Shown here: positions 3,399 through 19,927 of the stretch, piece after piece | How the letters are laid out: every line of letters begins with the position of its first letter | Position numbering within the stretch: the first letter of the stretch is position 1 | From: a bacterium | Lineage (GTDB): Bacteria > Patescibacteriota > Minisyncoccia > UBA6257 > JAGOQP01 | Length of the DNA stretch: 62,593 bases | Direction of reading: 5' to 3' | NCBI GenBank assembly: GCA_021780615.1 | Contig: JAJXYJ010000006.1 | Span: forward strand, 1-62,593 | Program-made: the position numbers and the translations under genes | The notes under the pieces: model-generated | Seen by the model: only the letters and a program-made list of their open reading frames with translations | The model's database searches: none | Told to the model about the DNA's origin: nothing

Positions 3399-5225
3399 TT
3401 ATGCTACCGTGGCTCGAATACGTCGTGTCCCTTTGGCAACTGATTCTTCTTTAGTAATGGTAAATACTCCGATGTGGCCGGTTCTTTCGACGTGCGGGCC
3501 TCCGCAGAATTCCATACTTACCACGCCACCGCTTTCAGGTGAGCCGATGTAGTACACCTTCACGGTTTCAGGGTATTTTTCTTTGAAAAAAGAAAGCGCA
3601 CCCGACGCAACGGCCTCGTCTTTGCTCATTTCTTTGTAATACACTGGCAAATCTTCTTTGATCCGTTCATTGACCATAAGTTCAACTGCTTGTATCTCTT
3701 CAGGGGTAAGCTTGCGATCGAAATTAAAATCAAATCGCATGCGATCAGGATTAATATCGGAGCCCATCTGATGGATGGTTTCTCCCAGTAGGGTGCGCAG
3801 GGCCCATTGAAGTAGATGCGTTGCGGTATGCATTCTCATCACCCGATCCATTTCTTGAGAATCTCGGGCTTTTAACTCCCCCGTATCAAGTACCAATCCG
3901 TGGCCGCCAAATTTTTTTTCCACGCCAGCGCGGGAAATATCCTGATGTTTTTTAAATTCTGCATCAAAATCCTCTTGTCGCATCGTAGCTGTTGCGTGCG
4001 GCGGCGCGAGTTCTTTGATGAGTTCATAGGGAAGGCCATAACTTTCATAAATGTGAAACGCATCGGCGCCGGATATCTCTTTTCGCTTGGTGAGTTCTTT
4101 TAATCCCCCCGCGATACTTTCTTGGAAGCGTTCTTCTTCTTCTTTCCACACCGCGTACATTCGTTCACTCTCCCGAATGAGTGGGTATATATTTCCAAAA
4201 AGCTCTTCTACCATCCGTTGTCCTTCGTGAAAAATATCCACGTGTACATCGTGTGTTATTTTTAAGGCTATTATTTTACGCAAGAGACGTCGCAAGATGT
4301 ACCCTGCTCCTTTATTTGATGGCACAATACCATCGCTCATCAAAAATAACGATCCGCGAATATGATCGGCGCAGATACGAATATCACGCTCGGGTACGTG
4401 GGACATATGTATGCGGATGGTATCCATGAGTGGTCGCAGAACGCTTGTTTCGAATATATTTTGTTTTCCTTCAGTGATAGTCAGGAGACGTTCTAATCCC
4501 ATACCGGTATCAATGCCTGGTTGGTCAACTTTTTGAAATTCTTGCTTGTCCCCTGTTGTCATTCGGGCAATGTACTCATTAAAGACAATATTCCATACTT
4601 CAACGCCTTTTCCTGCCAATGCTTCATCTGCCGATGGGGCGATATAAATTTCTGTTGTGGGTCCGCAGGGTCCCTCAGCGCCTGTTGGTCCCCAAAAATT
4701 ATCTTGTCGAGATCCCAATCGAATCCGTTCTTTGGCGAGCCCTATCTCATTGTGCCATATGGCATATGATGCTTCGTCGCGTGGTGTCCGCTCATCCCCT
4801 TCAAAGACAGTGACGTAGATGCGTTCAGGACTAATACCGAGTACCGAGGTGATAAATTCATATCCCCAGGTAATTGCAGATCGTTTGAAATAGCCTTGTA
4901 TTGAATAATCAGTCGGATCATCGGTTCCTACGGGACCAAATGAAAAATTACCCAACATCTCAAAGAATGTTAGGTGCGTATCATCGCCCACTTCTTCAAA
5001 ATCGGTTGTACGGAAACATTTTTGAATTGACACCGTTCTGGCTGATCCGAAATCTTGCACCGCATCAAGTTCTTTGGTGTAGTAGCGCTTAAATTGTTGC
5101 ATGCCGGCGGTAGTGAGTAGTACCGACGAATCATCAGGAACAAGTGATGAGGATGTAATAACCCGATGTCCCCGTGTTTCAAAATAATCAAAAAATTTTT
5201 TTCGAATGTCATGTAAGGGATTCAT
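3399..5225 (-). CDS. alaS: alanine--tRNA ligase, short form (catalytic, tRNA-binding and editing domains, no C-Ala domain)
   Basis: N-terminus IRKKFFDYFETRGHRVITSSSLVPDDSSVLLTTAGMQQFK is the class II AlaRS signature. HTATHLL and CGGPHV editing-domain zinc motifs are present. Only 608 aa. Confidence 0.92.
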   Translation of the reverse strand: MNPLHDIRKKFFDYFETRGHRVITSSSLVPDDSSVLLTTAGMQQFKRYYTKELDAVQDFGSARTVSIQKCFRTTDFEEVGDDTHLTFFEMLGNFSFGPVGTDDPTDYSIQGYFKRSAITWGYEFITSVLGISPERIYVTVFEGDERTPRDEASYAIWHNEIGLAKERIRLGSRQDNFWGPTGAEGPCGPTTEIYIAPSADEALAGKGVEVWNIVFNEYIARMTTGDKQEFQKVDQPGIDTGMGLERLLTITEGKQNIFETSVLRPLMDTIRIHMSHVPERDIRICADHIRGSLFLMSDGIVPSNKGAGYILRRLLRKIIALKITHDVHVDIFHEGQRMVEELFGNIYPLIRESERMYAVWKEEEERFQESIAGGLKELTKRKEISGADAFHIYESYGLPYELIKELAPPHATATMRQEDFDAEFKKHQDISRAGVEKKFGGHGLVLDTGELKARDSQEMDRVMRMHTATHLLQWALRTLLGETIHQMGSDINPDRMRFDFNFDRKLTPEEIQAVELMVNERIKEDLPVYYKEMSKDEAVASGALSFFKEKYPETVKVYYIGSPESGGVVSMEFCGGPHVERTGHIGVFTITKEESVAKGTRRIRATVA

Positions 5226-5233
5226 GATGGGCA

Positions 5234-5366
5234 GAAATTTTTAATTTGAAATTTTTAATTTTTAAATAATGTTTCAATTTTTCCTGCCTGCCGGTAGGCA
5301 AGAATGTTTTAAACATTAGGATTTATGTATAAAATTAAAAAATTAAAAATTATAAAATTGATTTTA
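5234..5366. repeat. AT-rich intergenic element with GC core, copy A (rpoD|alaS spacer)
   Basis: Aligns almost end to end with 30475-30597: shared AATTTTTAAATAATGTTT.AATTT..CCTGCC..GCCGG.AGG..GAATGTTT...ATAAAATTAAAAA..TTATAAAATT. Confidence 0.8.
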
Positions 5367-5369
5367 AAC

Positions 5370-6650
5370 TTAATATTCTTCTAGTGCCTTTGCTTTTTCG
5401 TGGTCGCGCATCCGTTCCAGCGCCTTGGCTTCAATTTGACGAATGCGTTCGCGCGTGACGCCAAATTTTTTTCCTACTTCTTCAAGAGTATGCGTGACGC
5501 CATCCATGAGTCCAAAACGCATAGAAATAATTTCTCGTTCCCGTGGCGTCAAATCTTCCATAATTTCCAATATTTTTTCACGGAGGAGAGAGTGGGATGT
5601 AATCTGATCGGGCGTCAATCCTTTTTCGTCCTTGATAAATTCTGAGAGTGTTGAATTGTCATCATCGTCTCCAACCGGCAACTCCAATGAAAGCACTTCC
5701 TGTGAAATTTCTTGAATGTGACGAACTTTATCAACTGAGATACCCATTTCTATGGCAATCTCTTCGGCCAGCGGATCTCTTCCTAATTCTTGAGCAAGGC
5801 GGCGTTTGATTTGTGTGTATTTTGATATGGTCTCAACCATATGGACCGGGATACGAATGGTGCGGCTCTGATCGGCAAGTGCGCGAGCGATTGCTTGGCG
5901 AATCCACCATGTTGCGTAGGTGGAAAACTTAAATCCTTTACGGTAGTCAAATTTATCTACTGCTTTTGAAAGGCCAATATTTCCTTCTTGGATGAGGTCC
6001 AAGATGCTCATATTATTACTCCGGTTCACATAATGTTTGGCGATGGAAACGACTAAACGAAGATTTGCCTGAATCAAACGTTGTCGTGCTTCTTCGTCGC
6101 TATGTTCGGCCCGTTTTGCCAAATCTTTTTCCTCTTGTCCAGTAAGCAGTGCCGTGCGGCCGATAGTCTTGAGATATAGTTGTACGGCGTCAGGAAGATC
6201 GGCAGCATTCAGTTCATTTATTTCTTTTTGAAGGTCATGCTCTTTTTTAACAGAAGAATCAATGAGTTGATCTACTTCAATAACTTTAATGTTATGTTTT
6301 TCAAGTTGTTGGTAAATTTCTTCCAAAAAAGAAACGTCGTCTTCGATATGGGGAAACACCGTCATAATTTCCGAATCAGTCACAAATCCTCGCGCTTTGC
6401 CGCGCTCAACGAGTTCCATGATGGTCGCCTCATCAAACACCTGTTTCTTTTTTGGTGCAGAACGAACAGGAGACTTTTTGGTCTTGTGTATTTTTTGAGC
6501 ACTTTTCTTTTTTACTACCTTATGTTTTGCCGCTATGTGATGCGGTTTCTTTTTGGCGACGGAAGTCGATTTCTTTTTTGATGCAGTCGCCGGTTTCTTG
6601 TGAGGAGATATTTTTTTACTCCCCTGACGGATATTTTTTTTGATTGCCAT
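5370..6650 (-). CDS. rpoD: RNA polymerase sigma factor, primary sigma-70 type, with a lysine-rich N-terminal tail
   Basis: Regions 2-4 are recognisable ([69 protein letters not shown]). The first ~70 aa are K-rich. Confidence 0.92.
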
Positions 6651-6719: not shown

Positions 6720-8441
6720 CTAATTATCTATCAATTTTGCGAGTTCGTCAAATTCTGTAAGTAATTCCTGTACATTTCCATTTTCTTCTTTTAATTCTAT
6801 TTTTTTAATAGTGTGCATAATTTGAGTGCGCCGCTCTTTTAAATACTCCTTTTTAAGCTCTTGGAGTAAGAACCGTCCTTCTAAAACGTTCTTTTCTTCG
6901 TCTCCACCATCGTCTCCCAATGACTGTTGCATGTCAATGAGCTGGAGTGCCTCTTGCATATGTACATCCAATGATACGTGTGTGGTGGTATCCAGAGATT
7001 CAATCATAGCGCCATAGGGTGCTGGAAAGTATGCTCGATACGCATGAGCTTCTTGTGCGATGTGTTTTGTGCGGCATGAAAGAAAGACAATCTGAGAGGC
7101 AAGTTTTTCGAGGCGCGATGTCGGTTCGTGTGCCACCACCGGCGAGGGAACGGCGGGTTGGCGGGGAAGGATGTGTTTTTTCTTGAGTAGTTGCACCTCT
7201 TCAAACACTGACTGTTCGGGAATGGCGATAGTATCTGCTATCTTCTTTATCCACCGTCCTTGTTCTAAGGGGCTTGCGGTAAGTATAATTTTTTCCAAAA
7301 GAGCTCGCACCGCGCTCTTCATAGTATCGGGAGATATATGAGTAAGATATTTGTTAAAATAATAATCAAATGCTGGCACGGCCGTGGTGATAATGGTTGA
7401 TGCAATTGCTCCCGGATTTTTTTGTATGAATTCAGCGGCGTCTTTTGCATCTGGCAGTACCAGTATCTTCACCGAAAAATCAAACGTATGAGCCATATCA
7501 ATAGCGCGTTCTGTTGCGGCTATCCCCGCTTCGTCACCATCAAAAGCCATAATGAGTGTCGTCGCTATTTTAGAAAGTACCTGCATGTGCTGTGTGGTGA
7601 GCGCTGTGCCTGACGTTGCCACTGCATACCGTACTCCTTCCTGGTGAAGCATTAATAGATCCATTTGTCCTTCTACAATAAGTGCCGTTTTTTCTTCCTT
7701 GATGGCGTGCTTTGCTTTATCAAGACCATAGAGTATATGCGATTTGTTAAAGATGGGGGTTTCGGGACTGTTGATGTATTTTCCCGTGTGGTCATTGTCT
7801 AACTGCGGAAGAATACGTCCAGAAAATGCGACTGTTTTGCCAAATGCATTAGCGAGAGGAAACATGATACGTCCACGAAATCGGTCAATATAAGTGCCTC
7901 GTTCCGTCCGTATGCTCATACCGGATCGCTCAATGTCTCGCATGGCATAGCCGGCATTAATAAGATGAAGCGTAAGGCCATCTGGTTCTTGGGGAGCGTA
8001 GCCAATAGTAAATTCTTCAATGGTTTGATCTCGCAATCCTCGTTCTTTTATGTAGGTGGTTGCTTCTGTACTTTGTACGAGTCGATCGGAAAAATATTCT
8101 TGAGCACGCGCCATAATATCATAGAGGACGCCAAATTCTTTTTGAGTTGCGGGGCTTATGTGTTGCAATTGCACCCCTGCTTTTTCAGCGAGTGCTTTGA
8201 GCGCTTCATAAAACTCAACGCCCTCATACTTCATGACAAAACTAATAACATCTCCCCCTTCGGCACATGATCCAAAACAGTGCCATGACTGACGATCGGG
8301 AGATACCACGAACGAAGGTGTTTTTTCTTTATGAAAAGGACACACTGCCTTAAAGTTTTTCCCAGCAGGAGTTAAGGGGATGTATTCTTTAATAACATCA
8401 ACAATATCGAGTTTTTCTTTTATCTGCTGAATGGGATCCAT
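6720..8441 (-). CDS. dnaG: DNA primase
   Basis: Zinc-binding [25 protein letters not shown]-like motif ([11 protein letters not shown]...WHCFGSC) and a Toprim region ([11 protein letters not shown]...DGDEAG). Confidence 0.92.
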   Translation of the reverse strand: [573 protein letters not shown]

Positions 8442-8512
8442 GGCCGGATTATAGCAGGATACAAAAAAGTTGCCAGCGATGTTTGTATGAGAAGGAAGAA
8501 ATAGCCGCTTAT

Positions 8513-8797
8513 TTAAGAAAGTGGAATTTTTTCAATGCATTGTGCAAGTTCTATATCCTTTTCGGATATGTCTCCTGTTGCATGAGTGGAAAGTTCAACG
8601 GTCACCGCGTTGTATGATACGTGCATATCAGGATGGTGATCGAGTTGTTGTGCGCAATTGGCAATTGCGTTTACTAATTGCATTGTCTCTGTAAAATCTT
8701 TCAATGTAAACGTATGTTTCATAACTTTTCCCTTATCCTGAATTTCCCAGGGAATACGGAGCTGGGCGATAGCGTGTTGTATGCGGGTGATGTCCAT
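8513..8797 (-). CDS. 4a-hydroxytetrahydrobiopterin (pterin-4-alpha-carbinolamine) dehydratase family protein
   Basis: DHHPDMHVSYNAVTVELSTHATGDISEKDIELA matches the PCD/DCoH core. Start set at the ATG at 8797, because the longer ORF would overlap the SOD gene. Confidence 0.8.
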   Translation of the reverse strand: MDITRIQHAIAQLRIPWEIQDKGKVMKHTFTLKDFTETMQLVNAIANCAQQLDHHPDMHVSYNAVTVELSTHATGDISEKDIELAQCIEKIPLS

Positions 8798-16102: not shown

Positions 16103-16444
16103 TTATGACAGCATGTTTTTTAAGACGATGGCTTCGTTGTGTTCTTCGTCTTTTGCCGCGTAGAGCAATGTGATGTTCTTTTGTTTCTTCACAATTTCTT
16201 TTAGTTCATTGAATGCCTCTTTGTTCCTTTTTATTTCGGCTCTGTATTTTGTTTTAAACGCCATCCATTTTTTGGGATCATGCCCAAACCACTTTCTCAA
16301 TACGTCAGAGGGGGCAATACCTTTTAACCACAAATCCAAGGCTGCTTTTTCCTTGGAAACACCTCGCGGCCACAGACGATCGACCAAAACTCGAAAACCA
16401 TCACTCTTGTTCGGTTTTTCATAGATGCGTTTAAGGGTAACCAT
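16103..16444 (-). CDS. DUF488 family protein
   Basis: KRIYEKPNKSDGFRVLVDRLWPRGVSKEKAALDLWLKGIAPSDVLRKWFGHDPKKW is the typical DUF488 (YeaO-like) sequence. Confidence 0.8.
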   Translation of the reverse strand: MVTLKRIYEKPNKSDGFRVLVDRLWPRGVSKEKAALDLWLKGIAPSDVLRKWFGHDPKKWMAFKTKYRAEIKRNKEAFNELKEIVKKQKNITLLYAAKDEEHNEAIVLKNMLS

Positions 16445-16548
16445 GGATATATATACTGTACTACAATTTTATAATAAAAATATTTGATACAGAAGCAGGT
16501 GTTAGCATAGTACCTCAAAGGCGGACATGATGTCCGCCTTTGTTTTTT

Positions 16549-16798
16549 ATAACTGGAGGCGTGTATTAAACGAAGTTCGAATGTATTTCGGACAAAATCC
16601 GCAGGATTTTGACGAATGACACGTGCGCCTCGCATTGACCGCTCGCATTCGCTCACGATACCTGCTTTGTGGCTTCGTTTGAGCCTTGTGGTAACTGTAA
16701 AATGCGGATTGTGTTGGGCACAAGTAAATCTATATGTGCTTGCCCCCTCCGCTCTGTGCGCGCGCAAGCCCGCCCGCTACCGCGGGCGGCTCCCTTAC
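16549..16798. other. GC-rich, hairpin-dense noncoding stretch (possible structured RNA or decayed sequence)
   Basis: No credible ORF. Perfect hairpin CAAAATCC-GCA-GGATTTTG (16593-16611), 8-bp GC hairpin 16770-16789, repeated CTCGCATT(G/C). Much more GC-rich than the adjacent 562-aa gene. Confidence 0.3.
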
Positions 16799-18487
16799 TT
16801 AAAGTTTCTTCGGTTCAATTTTCCGTTTTGTTTTAACGTCATTCAAAAATATCTTAGAGCTATCAACATTTCCGCTATAGTAGTACGAGAGCGAGTTTTC
16901 CTCAAAATTGTAGACCATATTCTTTTTCAAAAAATGATCCAGAATTTCACGTCCCTGCTTTTCAAGTAATTCTTTCTTACCTTCTGGCAACTCTGTCGCG
17001 TCATAGAATTCTTGCTTGAAGCCCTGATACAACTTTGGGAAAGCCTCGGCCAATTTTGAGAAAATAGGTATGTGCAAATCCTTTGCTTGTGCCTTGTTTT
17101 GCTCTTCAGAGAAAGCGTAAGAACCGAACACAAAGAAATAAACCAGAATCATCGCTGGGGAATACCCTTTATAGTTAGGCATAATTCCGTCACCAAGAAT
17201 TTTCTTTTTTAACTTTTTAACAAAAGTGGAGTAGGCAATATTTGTCTTAAAACCGTCCTTTTGTATTTCAAGAAAGTGATCATACAACTGATACACTTTC
17301 AATCTAAATATCTCCTCATTTTCGATTTTGTATTTACTTATTGAATTGTGGAAAAGGTCATACAAAAATGTTCCTGTATTTTCTCTTACCTTTTTGCTCT
17401 TGTCCTTTGTTCTAACGCCGCATGTGTAATACCAACCAAACCCTTCGACACGATCTATAAGCATTTCTAATTGTTTTTGGTCATAGCATGATTCAATAAA
17501 CCCTCCGATTTCCTTAAAGAAAATACCGATCAACTCATCATTGAGTTCATAGTTTTTCTGGTAACCATCTTTTAAGCTAACGTGGTTATTTTCCTGATAC
17601 ACTAATCTAAAGTATCTGGTAACTAGAGAAATATAGTTTAATTGACCAACACTGGTTAAGCCATTGAACCCGTACTCTCCAAACAAAACTTGCAATAGCG
17701 AATTATTTTTATCTTTTATCATTGCGTCATCAAGACAAAATAAGCCATTCGGGTAAATCTTTTCTCCTATAAACATATTCAGAAATGAGTCACTATTTTC
17801 TAATGACTTAACCATCAGCCGCTTTAGAAAAAATTCTATATGAGACAAATCCTGCCCGCCTTGTTTTTGCTTTTCTCTATAAAAATCTATAGTGCGCCCA
17901 AAGACAAAATAAGATTCGGAAAAATGTTTGAGAAAAATATCACTAGCAAAATCATTTCTAAATATTTTTTGCACGTCTTTATTACTCAATGAAAGATCGA
18001 GTAAGTTTTCAAACAATTCTATGGATCCTCGAATAATTTGCACTTTGTCTAAATGGGCGTTAGACAAAGTTCCGGCTAAAATATCCTGGAAAATAGCAAT
18101 TTGATTTTTGTTGAGTCGTTCAAGTGGATTAAGAATTACCCATAGGTAAATCGCTATCGCTACACCCATAAAAATTGCACCCCCAATTTCAAAAATGAAT
18201 GGGTATCCAAGAAAAAGTCCGTCTAATTCTCCAAAAAATGCTAAAATTATACTCCCGACAGCGAGCCAAAGGGCCAACTTTCTTTTCCTATAATTCAAGC
18301 TGAACCTTAGCTCTCGTCTGTTTGAAATAAATTCAATAAAAGCAACAACTATGGCAATAGCTGTAATTGCGACGCCTAAATTGTATGAGGAATGGGTCTT
18401 CCAAATCGGATTATCCAAGATGGTGGCAGTAGTGTTACTAGACCATCCCTGTACACTCGTTAGAAATTGATAAAGACATTGATTCAT
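16799..18487 (-). CDS. orphan 562-aa integral membrane protein (about 4 N-terminal TM helices plus one near residue 455)
   Basis: Long uninterrupted ORF, AT-rich. Starts 6 nt after the HNH stop. No motif I can assign. Confidence 0.7.
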   Translation of the reverse strand: MNQCLYQFLTSVQGWSSNTTATILDNPIWKTHSSYNLGVAITAIAIVVAFIEFISNRRELRFSLNYRKRKLALWLAVGSIILAFFGELDGLFLGYPFIFEIGGAIFMGVAIAIYLWVILNPLERLNKNQIAIFQDILAGTLSNAHLDKVQIIRGSIELFENLLDLSLSNKDVQKIFRNDFASDIFLKHFSESYFVFGRTIDFYREKQKQGGQDLSHIEFFLKRLMVKSLENSDSFLNMFIGEKIYPNGLFCLDDAMIKDKNNSLLQVLFGEYGFNGLTSVGQLNYISLVTRYFRLVYQENNHVSLKDGYQKNYELNDELIGIFFKEIGGFIESCYDQKQLEMLIDRVEGFGWYYTCGVRTKDKSKKVRENTGTFLYDLFHNSISKYKIENEEIFRLKVYQLYDHFLEIQKDGFKTNIAYSTFVKKLKKKILGDGIMPNYKGYSPAMILVYFFVFGSYAFSEEQNKAQAKDLHIPIFSKLAEAFPKLYQGFKQEFYDATELPEGKKELLEKQGREILDHFLKKNMVYNFEENSLSYYYSGNVDSSKIFLNDVKTKRKIEPKKL

Positions 18488-18493
18488 TTATTT

Positions 18494-18730
18494 TTATCGA
18501 TTACCTTTTGCCCGATTATGGGTTTTGCACAACATCTCGCAATTCTTTGCCGAAGTAGCACCGCCCTTACTCCATGCTAACACATGGTCAGCTTCCATTT
18601 CGCCAAAACTCCAAATTTTTTCCTTGTTAGAGTCATGCCTAACGGCACAAAGCGAGCAGTTTGATTTTTCTTTAGCTTCTGCTTCTTTAGTTTGTTTTGC
18701 GTTCGCGTATGCACTCAATGTTTTTACCAA
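18494..18730 (-). CDS. stand-alone HNH endonuclease domain protein
   Basis: CSLCAV...EADHVLAWSKGGATSAKNCEMLCKTHNRAKGN is an HNH beta-beta-alpha-Me motif with Cys pairs. No ATG is available (TTG at 18730). An out-of-frame ATG at 18752 precedes an A5 run. Confidence 0.7.
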   Translation of the reverse strand: MVKTLSAYANAKQTKEAEAKEKSNCSLCAVRHDSNKEKIWSFGEMEADHVLAWSKGGATSAKNCEMLCKTHNRAKGNR

Positions 18731-18764
18731 GTTTGGATGCTGAAGTACTCATATCTACATGTGT

Positions 18765-18794
18765 ATTATAACCGAATATTGCATCTTATAACAA
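18765..18794 (-). promoter_or_regulatory. candidate sigma-70 promoter for the HNH/562-aa pair
   Basis: Minus strand TTGTTA-18 nt-TATAAT, about 35 nt upstream of the HNH ORF. Confidence 0.35.
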
Positions 18795-18918
18795 TATTGT
18801 CATATATTACAAATATGCAAATATTAAAGCGCCGGAACCAAAACAAAAAATTTCCTTTTTTCAAATATTCCACCTCGCGCCGACCCTATTTCGACTTTTG
18901 ATTTCGATTTTTAATTTT

Positions 18919-19080
18919 GGCGGAGAGGGCGGAAAGGTTGAATTTGGCCTCGACTAAATTTTTTCCGTCGAAAAAATTTGTCTGGCCACCACCTCATATA
19001 CAATTCTGTTGAATTGTATATATTCCGGTGTTCAAATCCCGATTGGCTCACAAGCAGTTGTGAGCCTCCCCTCTCCGCCA
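18919..19080. repeat. tRNA-Ser-end-derived hairpin-rich element E1
   Basis: Starts with GGCGGAGAGGGCGG (13 nt identical to the complement of the tRNA-Ser 3' end). Ends with the inverted copy CCCTCTCCGCC(A). Contains three perfect 9-11 bp hairpins and a GTTCAAATCC T-loop-like string. Confidence 0.6.
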
Positions 19081-19120
19081 TACATGCAAAAGCCCCTTTA
19101 TAGGGGCGTATTTATTGTAT

Positions 19121-19277
19121 GGCGGAGAGGGCGGGATTTGGCTACAAGTAAATTTTTCTTCCGAAAAATTTCCCGCAGCCCGCCCCTCGCGGCGCTTCTC
19201 GCCATATCGCTCGTCGCGCAGCGCTGCGGTCTTCAAATCCTCCACGTGAGTGAATCAATTCACTCACTCTCTCCGCA
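19121..19277. repeat. tRNA-Ser-end-derived hairpin-rich element E2
   Basis: 19122-19140 is identical to 19312-19330 (19 nt of the tRNA-Ser 3' end, same orientation). The right end CTCTCCGC is its inverted copy. Same AAATTTTT-loop-AAAAATTT hairpin as E1. Confidence 0.6.
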
Positions 19278-19305
19278 AAATTAAAACCCGCATATAAGCG
19301 GGCTT
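19277..19305 (-). terminator. intrinsic terminator after tRNA-Ser
   Basis: Minus strand AAGCCCGC-TTATAT-GCGGGTTTTAATTTT, immediately 3' of the tRNA. Confidence 0.7.
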
Positions 19306-19312
19306 AATTTTG

Positions 19313-19397
19313 CGGAGAGGGCGGGATTTGAACCCGCGATACCTTGCGGTATACCCACTTTCCAGGCGGGCGCACTAGACCACTATGCGACCTCTCC
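19313..19397 (-). tRNA. tRNA-Ser (anticodon GGA), class II with long variable arm
   Basis: Folds by hand: GGAGAGG/CCTCTCC acceptor, GCA..TGC D stem with GG, CCCGC-CTGGAAA-GTGGG anticodon arm, ATACC-GCAA-GGTAT variable arm, GCGGG-TTCAAAT-CCCGC T arm, discriminator G. No encoded CCA. Confidence 0.9.
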
Positions 19398-19655
19398 ATA
19401 TATCTCGTTTAGTGCGTGTTTCAATTTTCCTTTCAGAACTTCACGCCCATGACCAGTTTTAAAATATTTTTCTGCCTCCTGAGCATCTTTCTTGTTACTA
19501 TAAGCTTCATAAAATATCAAATCAAACGTTCCATTTTTTGATGTAAAGTCCGAATGGCCAGCTTGATGCTCTTCAATCCTGCGTTTAAGATTGTTGGTAA
19601 ATCCCTTGTATAATTTTCCATTTTGCTTAAAGCGCAAAACGTAGAAGTAATACAT
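19383..19655 (-). CDS. GIY-YIG nuclease family protein (small COG2827/UPF0213-like)
   Basis: MYYFYVLRFKQNGKLYKGFTNNLKRRIEEHQAG...FYEAYSNKKDAQEAEKYFK fits the GIY-YIG...R...H...E pattern. The last 4 codons and the stop lie inside tRNA-Ser nt 1-15. Confidence 0.85.
   Translation of the reverse strand: MYYFYVLRFKQNGKLYKGFTNNLKRRIEEHQAGHSDFTSKNGTFDLIFYEAYSNKKDAQEAEKYFKTGHGREVLKGKLKHALNEIYGEVA
19385..19412. repeat. 28-bp direct repeat, proximal copy (tRNA-Ser nt 1-13 plus 15 nt of leader)
   Basis: ATGCGACCTCTCCATATATCTCGTTTAG is identical to 19705-19732. Confidence 0.95.
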
Positions 19656-19704
19656 TTCTTATTGACCACTTCCGCCTCACCGGCGGATGCGCCGACGAGG
19701 CGCA

Positions 19705-19732
19705 ATGCGACCTCTCCATATATCTCGTTTAG
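19705..19732. repeat. 28-bp direct repeat, distal copy, bracketed by twin TGCGCC-GAYGA-GGCGCA hairpins (19688-19704, 19737-19753)
   Basis: Exact copy of 19385-19412. The two copies flank the GIY-YIG gene. Confidence 0.95.
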
Positions 19733-19927
19733 CGTGTGCGCCGATGAGGCGCAACGTGTAGAGCATAGCAAAGCGATATGCGCTATGCAAGAAAATACTT
19801 CGTAACAAAACAATGTGCGTATATGTATTAAAAGGTATAGGTTTTAATATTCGCTTTGCTTTGGATATGCATAAAAGGTCGATCCAATGATGCAATCATT
19901 ATAAAAAATAATTACGTGTACTACTAT

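Follow-up and report, generated by a model that had tools for sequence, protein, structure and literature searches.

A decayed restriction–modification operon and its accompanying membrane-protein gene in a Patescibacteriota bacterium

The window analysed here is a 62,593-nucleotide (nt) contig stretch from a Patescibacteriota bacterium (JAJXYJ010000006.1), and the feature under study lies on its minus strand at positions 16799–18730. Two open reading frames (ORFs) stand there in tandem: a 78-codon ORF that carries an HNH motif and, after a gap of 6 nt between its TAA stop (18496–18494) and the ATG at 18487, an ORF for a 562-amino-acid (aa) membrane protein, hereafter called X (Table 1). The initial annotation had listed both ORFs with their TTG and ATG starts and their 6-nt spacing, a tRNA-Ser upstream with attachment (att)-like copies of its 3′ end, and a GC-rich non-coding stretch after X. 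All of these were found again, the tRNA copies comprising a perfect 19-nt copy, a 74% copy and inverted copies. The same annotation had read the two ORFs as acquired cargo resembling a two-gene abortive infection (Abi) module. The best explanation overall, which we consider very likely, is that the locus is an internally deleted restriction–modification (R-M) operon in which X is an R-M-linked accessory membrane protein.

The HNH motif noted in the 78-codon ORF is genuine, scoring 31.8 bits against the Pfam HNH family PF01844 (cut-off 21.4; E=1.5e-7) over profile positions 12–47 only; the ORF carries a beta-beta-alpha-Me HNH motif with its catalytic His, structural Asn and Cys pairs and keeps every column that is invariant over 21 relatives. 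Its best PADLOC match, however, covered positions 314–371 of a type II restriction-enzyme model 372 positions long, and this location at the extreme C-terminus was the first sign that the ORF is a fragment. A scan of one genome per species gave at least 577 relatives across many phyla, of which the best 80 loci were examined. In nearly all of these the match, at 65–84% identity, was to the C-terminal ~70 residues of an ORF of ~390–420 aa. One such relative (L016; L-numbers denote the loci examined) and an enzyme encoded next to X in another contig (L002) both consist of GmrSD_N (DUF262) and HNH domains and match the PADLOC REase_II model PDLC03418 end to end (E=5e-82 and 9e-134, respectively). 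An EcoRI-family methylase (PF13651; PADLOC MTase_II PDLC03297) lies immediately upstream in 70 of the 80 loci, and thus the DUF262-HNH endonuclease and the EcoRI-family methylase form a widespread two-gene type II R-M system. No solved structure of the full-length endonuclease was returned by a PDB sequence search.

In the window only the end of this enzyme is left. With a DNA profile made from the last 420 nt of endonuclease genes of the window's own lineage (lineage B, below), nhmmer aligned only 18702–18495, to profile positions 215–422 of 423 (E=4.3e-57), and in tblastn the relic was 76% identical to residues 312–387 of the L016 enzyme. When two full-length enzymes were compared with the window by tblastn, only residues 305/312 to the end were matched, with no trace of DUF262 (the DGQQR-motif domain), and no significant methylase match was present anywhere in the window (best E=1.1). 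The relic therefore keeps a complete HNH/zinc-finger motif and has lost the DUF262 domain. Codons 1–10 of the 78-codon ORF are controller-gene sequence read in another frame, endonuclease sequence beginning at about codon 10–12; the ORF has no ATG, nor is its TTG preceded by any visible Shine-Dalgarno-like sequence. Hence the protein described earlier as essentially only an HNH motif corresponds, at 18702–18494, to the 3′ end of a longer gene. The ORF is evidently a deletion relic of a restriction endonuclease and not a stand-alone nuclease, and it fails as a functional member of the type II R-M family because the DUF262 domain, the methylase and a proper start are all missing. Two other assignments were considered and rejected. 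A family of stand-alone small HNH proteins had been suggested by 129 short HNH matches in a metagenome protein database, but genome loci show full-length genes of ~390 aa; these short entries, some of them labelled partial, align to the C-terminal region of the endonuclease. An independent small HNH nuclease was discarded because the nearest relatives are not complete proteins of like length with a start of their own.

Upstream of the relic, a second gene fragment was identified. A 24-residue hidden Markov model of R-M controller (C) protein N-termini placed this segment, C′, first among 2465 six-frame segments (E=4.9e-4; next 0.13), and a DNA profile of C-gene promoters and 5′ ends gave a single nhmmer match in the window, at 18858–18697 (E=5.3e-13). 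The first 19 codons of C′ are the N-terminus of an XRE/HTH_3 R-M controller and align with the controller N-termini of L005 (MKSESAKLGKNLKRIRTEKG) and L097 (MLISKRLGDNIKKIRTRKG), and the C′ ORF stops two codons past the point at which endonuclease sequence takes over. Related operons have an HTH_3 gene of ~70 aa ahead of the methylase, and the helix-turn-helix (HTH) genes of L005 and L010 match the PADLOC Control_protein model. The complete ~70-aa controller is not present in the window, where the HTH has been deleted and the C′ ORF stops at 18687. The initial annotation had drawn attention to an out-of-frame ATG (18752) and an A5 run (18725–18721), and both are there; its suggestion that a 1-nt frameshift in the run could link that ATG to the HNH ORF did not hold, as the apparent link is a coincidence of the deletion junction and the ATG is the start of the controller gene.

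The regulatory region of the controller gene appears to have survived with its start codon. A promoter-like site falls inside the segment that aligns to the C-gene upstream regions of other X loci, and it now stands directly upstream of the relic and X. Operator-like repeats accompany it, with a palindromic inverted repeat at 18787–18804 and a tandem repeat of 18-nt period (2.1 copies, 18775–18812), and the motif ACAATATTG...ATGCAAT is common to the window and the C-gene upstream regions of L097, L101, L104 and L005. The CAATATT repeats resemble a C-box, for which we infer an operator function. X and the relic are probably transcribed from the former C promoter; transcription of X would run from there through the relic, without autoregulation by C.

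The C-gene profile aligned down to 18697 and the endonuclease profile from 18702, and this overlap identifies the deletion junction as a microhomology of 6 nt. The reading frame is not kept across it, and it is only by chance that the TTG ORF stays open upstream of the junction. Taking the intact operons of L010, L101 and L104 as the measure, ~2.2 kb have been lost, namely the C gene from codon ~20, the whole methylase gene (M) and the first ~320 codons of the endonuclease gene (R). The ancestral layout, which is found intact in related contigs of the candidate phyla radiation (CPR), was promoter/operator repeats, C (HTH), M (EcoRI-family adenine methylase), R (DUF262 + HNH) and X. Comparison with it shows the window's locus to be an internally deleted R-M operon, now P(C)-C′-′R-X. 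The affinity to the type II system of EcoRI-family methylase and DUF262-HNH endonuclease, often with C, is threefold: the relic is 65–84% identical to the endonuclease C-terminus, the sequence upstream of it matches the controller promoter and start, and intact versions precede X in related contigs. Unlike that system, the window has no functional member, R being reduced to its last 69 codons and C to its first 19; outside the CPR the system lacks an X gene (0 of 80 loci). The ancestral endonuclease also shares with the type IV enzymes GmrSD, BrxU and SspE the combination of a ParB/Srx-like DUF262 domain at the N-terminus with an HNH-type nuclease at the C-terminus (PMC4619093, PMC12707154). 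By contrast with these, it is half the size, has a classical PF01844 HNH instead of DUF1524, is paired with a methylase and is classed as type II by PADLOC; of this architecture the window keeps the HNH end only.

The neighbourhoods of X elsewhere show what it travels with. Look-ups and scans gave ~26 informative, non-redundant loci with X or a homologue, and no two of the 23 X sequences compared were more than 97% identical. In ~21 of the 26 X is preceded, at 0–66 nt and in the same orientation, by a restriction gene or its remnant, and in ~4 loci it stands alone. Its partners comprise two DUF262-HNH lineages, A and B (~40% identical to each other), another type II enzyme, a type III Res and a type I HsdR (Table 1); wherever the DUF262-HNH endonuclease is present, X starts 0–30 nt past its stop. 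The endonuclease remnant of L005/L006 sits behind a complete HinP1I-like C5-methylase/endonuclease pair, and the X homologue of the type I loci was related to X by hhalign (probability 99.7, E=1e-26). No X gene was found in the 80 loci of the HNH-endonuclease lineage outside X loci (0/80). On the X tree the two endonuclease lineages do not separate but occur mixed, a sign that recombination between X and R-M modules has happened repeatedly. In L001, L002 and L126 the cassette has serine recombinases at its flanks. In L004 X is followed by a PycTM-like gene (PADLOC PycTM models, E=2.7e-7); a precomputed Pfam match for this neighbour was not reproduced by our own Pfam scan.

Taken together, the neighbourhoods show the X family to be recurrently the last gene of type I, II and III R-M operons, directly behind the nuclease subunit. 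That it sits so closely, and in the same orientation, after nucleases of at least five unrelated families speaks for a functional tie to restriction and against co-location by chance. Because X occurs behind several R-M types or alone, the link is to R-M in general and not to HNH.

Table 1 Features at the locus in the window, and genes preceding X or its homologue at the loci examined
Feature	Position in window or loci	Strand	Basis or remark
562-aa ORF (X)	18487..16799	(-)	ATG start, ORF listing
78-codon ORF	18730..18494	(-)	TTG start, ORF listing
′R relic, last 69 codons + stop of lineage-B DUF262(GmrSD_N)+HNH type II endonuclease	18494..18702	(-)	nhmmer, tblastn
Deletion junction, ACGCAA microhomology (6 nt)	18697..18702	(-)	C codon ~19 joined to endonuclease codon ~320
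C′ relic, ATG 18752 + 21 codons, MSTSASKLGKNIECIRERK to the junction, then TN and stop	18687..18752	(-)	alignment, HMM
Promoter-like site TTGTTA-18 nt-TATAAT	18765..18794	(-)	10/12 sigma-70-like positions, best in 16300–19500
Operator-like (C-box-like) repeats	18775..18812	(-)	palindrome ACAATATTGT + second (G)CAATATT(C) copy overlapping promoter
att-like tRNA-Ser 3′-end copies	18920..19140	(-)	within two degenerate ~200-nt tandem units, between tRNA and C promoter
tRNA-Ser(GGA)	19312..19397	(-)	ARAGORN; Rfam RF00005, 57.8 bits; upstream of cassette
GC-rich non-coding element	16545..16798	(-)	directly 3′ of X, 52% GC
Full lineage-A DUF262-HNH endonuclease before X	L001, L002, L010-12/L111, L101, L104, L105, L126		
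Full lineage-A endonuclease before X, contig-truncated	L100, L103, L107, L108		
Full lineage-B endonuclease (window's lineage) before X	L097, L099, L106, L113		
Intact operon with C gene (C-M-R-X)	L010-12/L111, L101, L104, L105		
M-R-X, no C gene detected upstream	L001, L002, L099, L106, L126		
M-R-X, 5′ cut by contig end	L097		
Endonuclease remnant before X, lineage-A residues 278–367	L005/L006		114-aa ORF
Endonuclease remnant before X, lineage-B residues 292–386	L008/L009		invariant Cys lost
Type III Mod/Res before X	L004		MTase_III+REase_III
Type I HsdMS + HsdR before full-length X homologue	L123/L124		homologue ~24% identical
N6_N4 methylase + REase_II PDLC03572 before X	L110		4-nt overlap
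Vsr gene before X	L112		
No recognisable R-M by X	L007, L125; L102; L122		L102, unknown 366-aa gene; L122, 114-aa HNH ORF 1.3 kb off

These neighbourhoods bear on the proposed two-gene Abi or defence module in which the 78-aa HNH peptide would work together with X as a functional minimal nuclease, a proposal that we regard as very unlikely. The ORF is open and keeps all invariant motif residues, but it is the 3′ end of a ~390-aa enzyme whose DUF262 domain is gone. Its stop lies 6 nt before X and a promoter-like site stands upstream, but its first ~10 codons are controller sequence in the wrong frame, its start is TTG and no ribosome-binding site is visible. Three independent truncations (window, L005/L006 and L008/L009) keep the HNH core beside X, and the L005 relic has an ATG and is packed tightly between R.HinP1I and X; the L008 relic, however, has lost a zinc-binding Cys, X also stands behind non-HNH nucleases (types I and III, PDLC03572) or without any nuclease, and in the HNH lineage outside X loci it is found in 0 of 80. 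The Abi module of HNH nuclease and membrane protein put forward in the initial annotation is thus replaced by a deletion relic, the remnant which that annotation had itself named as speaking against it, translation aside. Nor does an HNH–X pairing recur: X follows HsdR, Res or a non-HNH type II enzyme, or stands alone, and the small HNH ORFs are independent truncations.

At two of the decayed loci further details were seen. In the L008 remnant the invariant NC(E/Q)MLCK reads NYQMLCK, and there (4603–5964), as in L009, a 453-aa GT4 glycosyltransferase call runs over the endonuclease remnant (5677–5961), such that the HNH tail in L008 may, through the deletion, have become an in-frame part of a housekeeping gene. 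In L110 (2072–4836) the PDLC03572 endonuclease is split into the overlapping ORFs 3789–4043 and 4000–4836, with an rve_3 integrase-core gene just upstream on the opposite strand; a frameshift may have split the gene, and the R-M system may be decaying beside an intact X. Among other neighbours, two DUF4238 genes (299–1273 and 7671–8573) flank the cassette in L001, and an unannotated 204-aa gene (L123 7653–8267) begins 5 nt after X in a type I locus; neither the DUF4238 genes nor the 204-aa gene had a PADLOC match.

X itself is confidently modelled. An AlphaFold2 model from a 26-sequence alignment (mean predicted local distance difference test score 83.5, predicted TM-score 0.79) comprises three transmembrane (TM) helices, a long all-alpha domain of ~440 aa and a small C-terminal beta-sheet. 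Hydropathy and the model agree on TM helices at about 36–56, 72–88 and 96–118, so that the N-terminal helices described initially are real, three in number and not four; the additional one placed near residue 455 is a helix (~445–458) that lies below the TM hydropathy threshold and is packed inside the globular domain. Loop 57–70 has seven Lys/Arg residues (positive-inside), which places the ~440-aa C-terminal domain (residues ~120–562) in the cytoplasm. X proteins span 540–610 aa. Their invariant motifs are SLEN..S.LN (near 228–237), N-x2-GY-x-P (438–444) and ENSLSYYYSG (529–539). Some members of the close clade (599–601 aa) have one additional N-terminal TM helix, whereas a divergent branch (P0216, P0221, P0224 and P0231; alignment A3) has instead a conserved C-L-G-x(6-8)-C before the first TM helix, a motif not present in the window's X clade.

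The initial annotation had recognised no motif in the large domain of X, and X has no recognisable family. Searches of Pfam, PHROGs and NCBIfam gave no significant match, and the best match in PADLOC-DB v2, to the 4TM effector PDLC00715, was not significant (E=0.14). A sequence profile search of the PDB returned EMC2 (E ~0.015), which was taken as a chance match of tetratricopeptide-repeat-like type and set aside. The predicted structure gave no fold assignment either: Foldseek found no PDB or BFVD match at E<=1e-3, and against the PDB X reached only generic helical-repeat proteins (TM-score<=0.26, E>=0.017).

The family is rare and confined in its named members. Homologues form 81 clusters at 39–87% identity, and an exhaustive profile search of 1.84 billion representative proteins found just 50 that match X at E<=1e-3; all members with taxonomic names are CPR (Minisyncoccota, Paceibacterota, Moranbacteria). 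X was not found in the INPHARED or PLSDB phage and plasmid collections, and it occurs on one IMG/VR contig (L126), beside a serine recombinase. The ratio of nonsynonymous to synonymous substitution rates (dN/dS) of X against five homologues is 0.04–0.055, with dS saturated, and X is evidently an intact gene under strong purifying selection. Its GC content (0.349) ranks 3 of 305 windows of 1.7 kb (mean 0.418, standard deviation 0.024). Both genes had been called AT-rich; this is true of X and not of the HNH ORF, whose GC content of 0.418 equals the window average. The earlier notion of acquired defence cargo likewise stands in general terms, given the GC content of X, its varied contexts, the serine recombinases, the IMG/VR contig and the R-M origin, but not in the form of a module of small HNH nuclease and membrane protein.

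Comparative genomics shows X persisting, apparently under purifying selection, when R-M genes decay. Nine contigs from several samples, which share an identical DUF488 neighbour, all carry X. Since X survives R-M loss at the window's locus, on these nine contigs, and in other lineages, it is unlikely to be a toxin that needs an R-M antidote and would seem to have a value of its own. X is probably a new R-M-associated accessory membrane protein with a defensive role. All homology-based comparisons of X with known families were negative; by function it fits the category of R-M-linked accessory gene only, and it is a candidate defence gene.

Two other readings of X were weighed. One holds that X has no part in defence: it would be a membrane or envelope protein specific to its lineage, next to a site where R-M cassettes tend to land, or a hitch-hiker on mobile DNA. 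We consider this reading unlikely. X is kept under purifying selection after R-M loss, contains no defence-type domain and occurs among glycosyltransferase, ABC-transporter or glycolysis genes (L008, L007, L125), and the intermixing of lineages A and B on its tree is what repeated reshuffling would leave. A landing site, however, predicts both orientations and variable spacing, neither of which was observed: X is always on the same strand, right after the nuclease gene (0–66 nt or overlapping), with at least five unrelated nuclease families, and the pattern extends to the partner of the ~24%-identical homologue. Moreover, X is patchy and very rare (50 clusters in 1.84e9), deviates in GC content and has recombinases and prophage-like genes among its neighbours. 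The other reading, quite unlikely in our estimate, makes X a structural partner, a membrane tether or regulator of R-M complexes acting, for example, at DNA entry or as a restraint during establishment. Its operon-terminal position directly behind the nuclease subunit in types I, II and III would suit such a role, as would the large cytoplasmic alpha-helical, solenoid-like domain, which looks fit for protein binding and for which Foldseek gives generic helical-repeat scaffolds only. Yet one adaptor is unlikely to bind five unrelated nuclease architectures, close X proteins pair with endonuclease lineages only ~40% identical, X is retained where R-M genes have been lost, and the widespread M-R pair works without X in other phyla (X in 0 of 80 loci).

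For the accessory protein itself we tentatively propose a mechanism, as a possibility that we hold to be short of likely: X would be an autonomous second-line defence protein that rides with R-M systems. The cytoplasmic helical domain would sense infection or the failure of restriction, and the TM segment would act on the membrane, causing abortive infection or growth arrest or blocking DNA entry. This model parallels PrrC and RonA in logic and not by homology. PrrC is encoded by an accessory gene within the type Ic EcoprrI R-M locus and serves as a fallback, bringing about abortive infection once restriction has been blocked (PMC12707154). Like it, X is built into R-M operons, but PrrC is a soluble, ABC-ATPase-like tRNA nuclease of type I loci only, and X is a membrane protein that accompanies R-M types I, II and III or stands alone. 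In Ronin (RonA + HsdMS) a membrane-active effector is tied to R-M parts and has been proposed to respond to anti-restriction proteins (bioRxiv 10.1101/2023.04.06.535777). RonA has 61 aa with a single TM helix, is lethal by itself and is linked to hsdS/hsdM without exception, whereas X has 540–610 aa and a 440-aa cytoplasmic domain, is evidently tolerated without an R-M partner and is not homologous. Family, PDB-sequence and fold searches gave no similarity of X to PrrC or RonA, and sizes and architectures differ. The persistence of X without R-M in several genomes argues against its being constitutively toxic. The 2TM/4TM effectors of CBASS and the PycTM effectors of Pycsar resemble X in their short N-terminal TM bundle and defence-island setting; X differs from them in having no cyclase or signalling partner and a large soluble domain of its own.

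Several points weigh against this account. No catalytic, sensor or pore motif can be recognised in X, nor does it have a structural relative, so the proposed mechanism is drawn from gene neighbourhood and topology only. The sample of loci is small (~26 informative) and comes mostly from metagenomes. X stands alone, with no adjacent R-M, in the window, L007 and L125, and probably in L102 and L122, which counts against a toxin that must be caged by an R-M partner, and a solitary X leaves room for a non-defence function. As to the relic, it holds every invariant HNH residue, and all three independent truncations preserve the HNH core, so a mini-HNH peptide may have a residual role; its dN/dS gives no reading of selection since the deletion, dS being saturated (pS, the proportion of synonymous differences, 0.65–0.8).

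The nuclease half of the locus is ordinary, a decayed type II R-M operon whose C′-′R fusion scar can be mistaken for a mini-nuclease. X is the part worth following, a confidently folded, strongly conserved orphan family that has been recruited repeatedly, as the last gene, by R-M systems of unrelated mechanism. CRISPR is rare in CPR bacteria, which are thought to lean heavily on R-M (PMC6509639), and an R-M add-on specific to the CPR would bear directly on their phage resistance. In the same tentative way as the mechanism, X could represent a CPR class of restriction-coupled membrane defence, a modular gene behind a type I, II or III nuclease subunit that would either act at the membrane, by Abi or DNA-entry exclusion, once restriction is overwhelmed or inhibited, or couple restriction to the envelope. 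If true, this would be a restriction-coupled layer of immunity specific to ultra-small, CRISPR-poor episymbionts.

The GC-rich element 3′ of X opens with the hairpin GCCGCCCGC-GGTA-GCGGGCGGGC and is single-copy in the window. Parts of it are matched at 75–80% directly 3′ of X in L097 (3544–3697) and L107 (2855–2950), and L097 has a further copy after a pilin-like gene (5223–5326). No Rfam family matches the element, the tRNA being the only Rfam match in the scan. It could be a terminator or 3′-untranslated-region module, a small RNA or a cassette-boundary repeat. Past X and this element, L097 (3838–4216) and L107 (3120–3230) contain a long inverted repeat with arms of ~27 nt (GCGGCGAAGCAAAAACCAAAAATTTCC / GGAAATTTTTGGTTTTTGCTTCGCCGC); next come another promoter of controller type and an HTH gene of 67 aa. 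This promoter module is the same one that is retained in the window, and in L097 genes for a small TM protein and a type IV pilin-like protein come after the HTH gene.

On the other side of the cassette, the perfect direct copy of the tRNA-Ser 3′ end lies at 19122–19140 and the 74% copy at 18920–18938, both between the tRNA and the cassette, with inverted copies at 19069–19084 and 19269–19284. A repeat search found no copy of the tRNA 3′ end 3′ of X, and none flanks the cassette distally. Likewise, no integrase was called within 10 kb, and no empty-site allele was found among the contigs sharing the flanking DUF488 gene, X being present on 9 of 9. The tandem ~200-nt units that follow the tRNA-Ser (18929–19335, minus strand) each open with a copy of the tRNA 3′ end, the perfect 19-nt copy belonging to the second. 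In each unit there are a terminator-like hairpin, a palindrome AAATTTTT...AAAAATTT and, interrupted by a hairpin, part of the tRNA 3′ end in inverted orientation. The units look like scars of repeated integration and excision, though no integrase is nearby.

A 90-aa GIY-YIG ORF (19383–19655, minus strand; Pfam E=9e-16, with weak PHROG homing-endonuclease matches) shares 15 nt with the 5′ end of tRNA-Ser. Direct repeats of 34 nt (94%; 19385–19418 and 19705–19738), which contain the last codons of the GIY-YIG ORF and the first 13 nt of the tRNA-Ser, bracket it, and a second, GC-rich repeat of 23 nt lies close by (19683–19705 and 19732–19754). This arrangement suggests that a small homing-endonuclease-like gene was inserted or duplicated at the tRNA-Ser.

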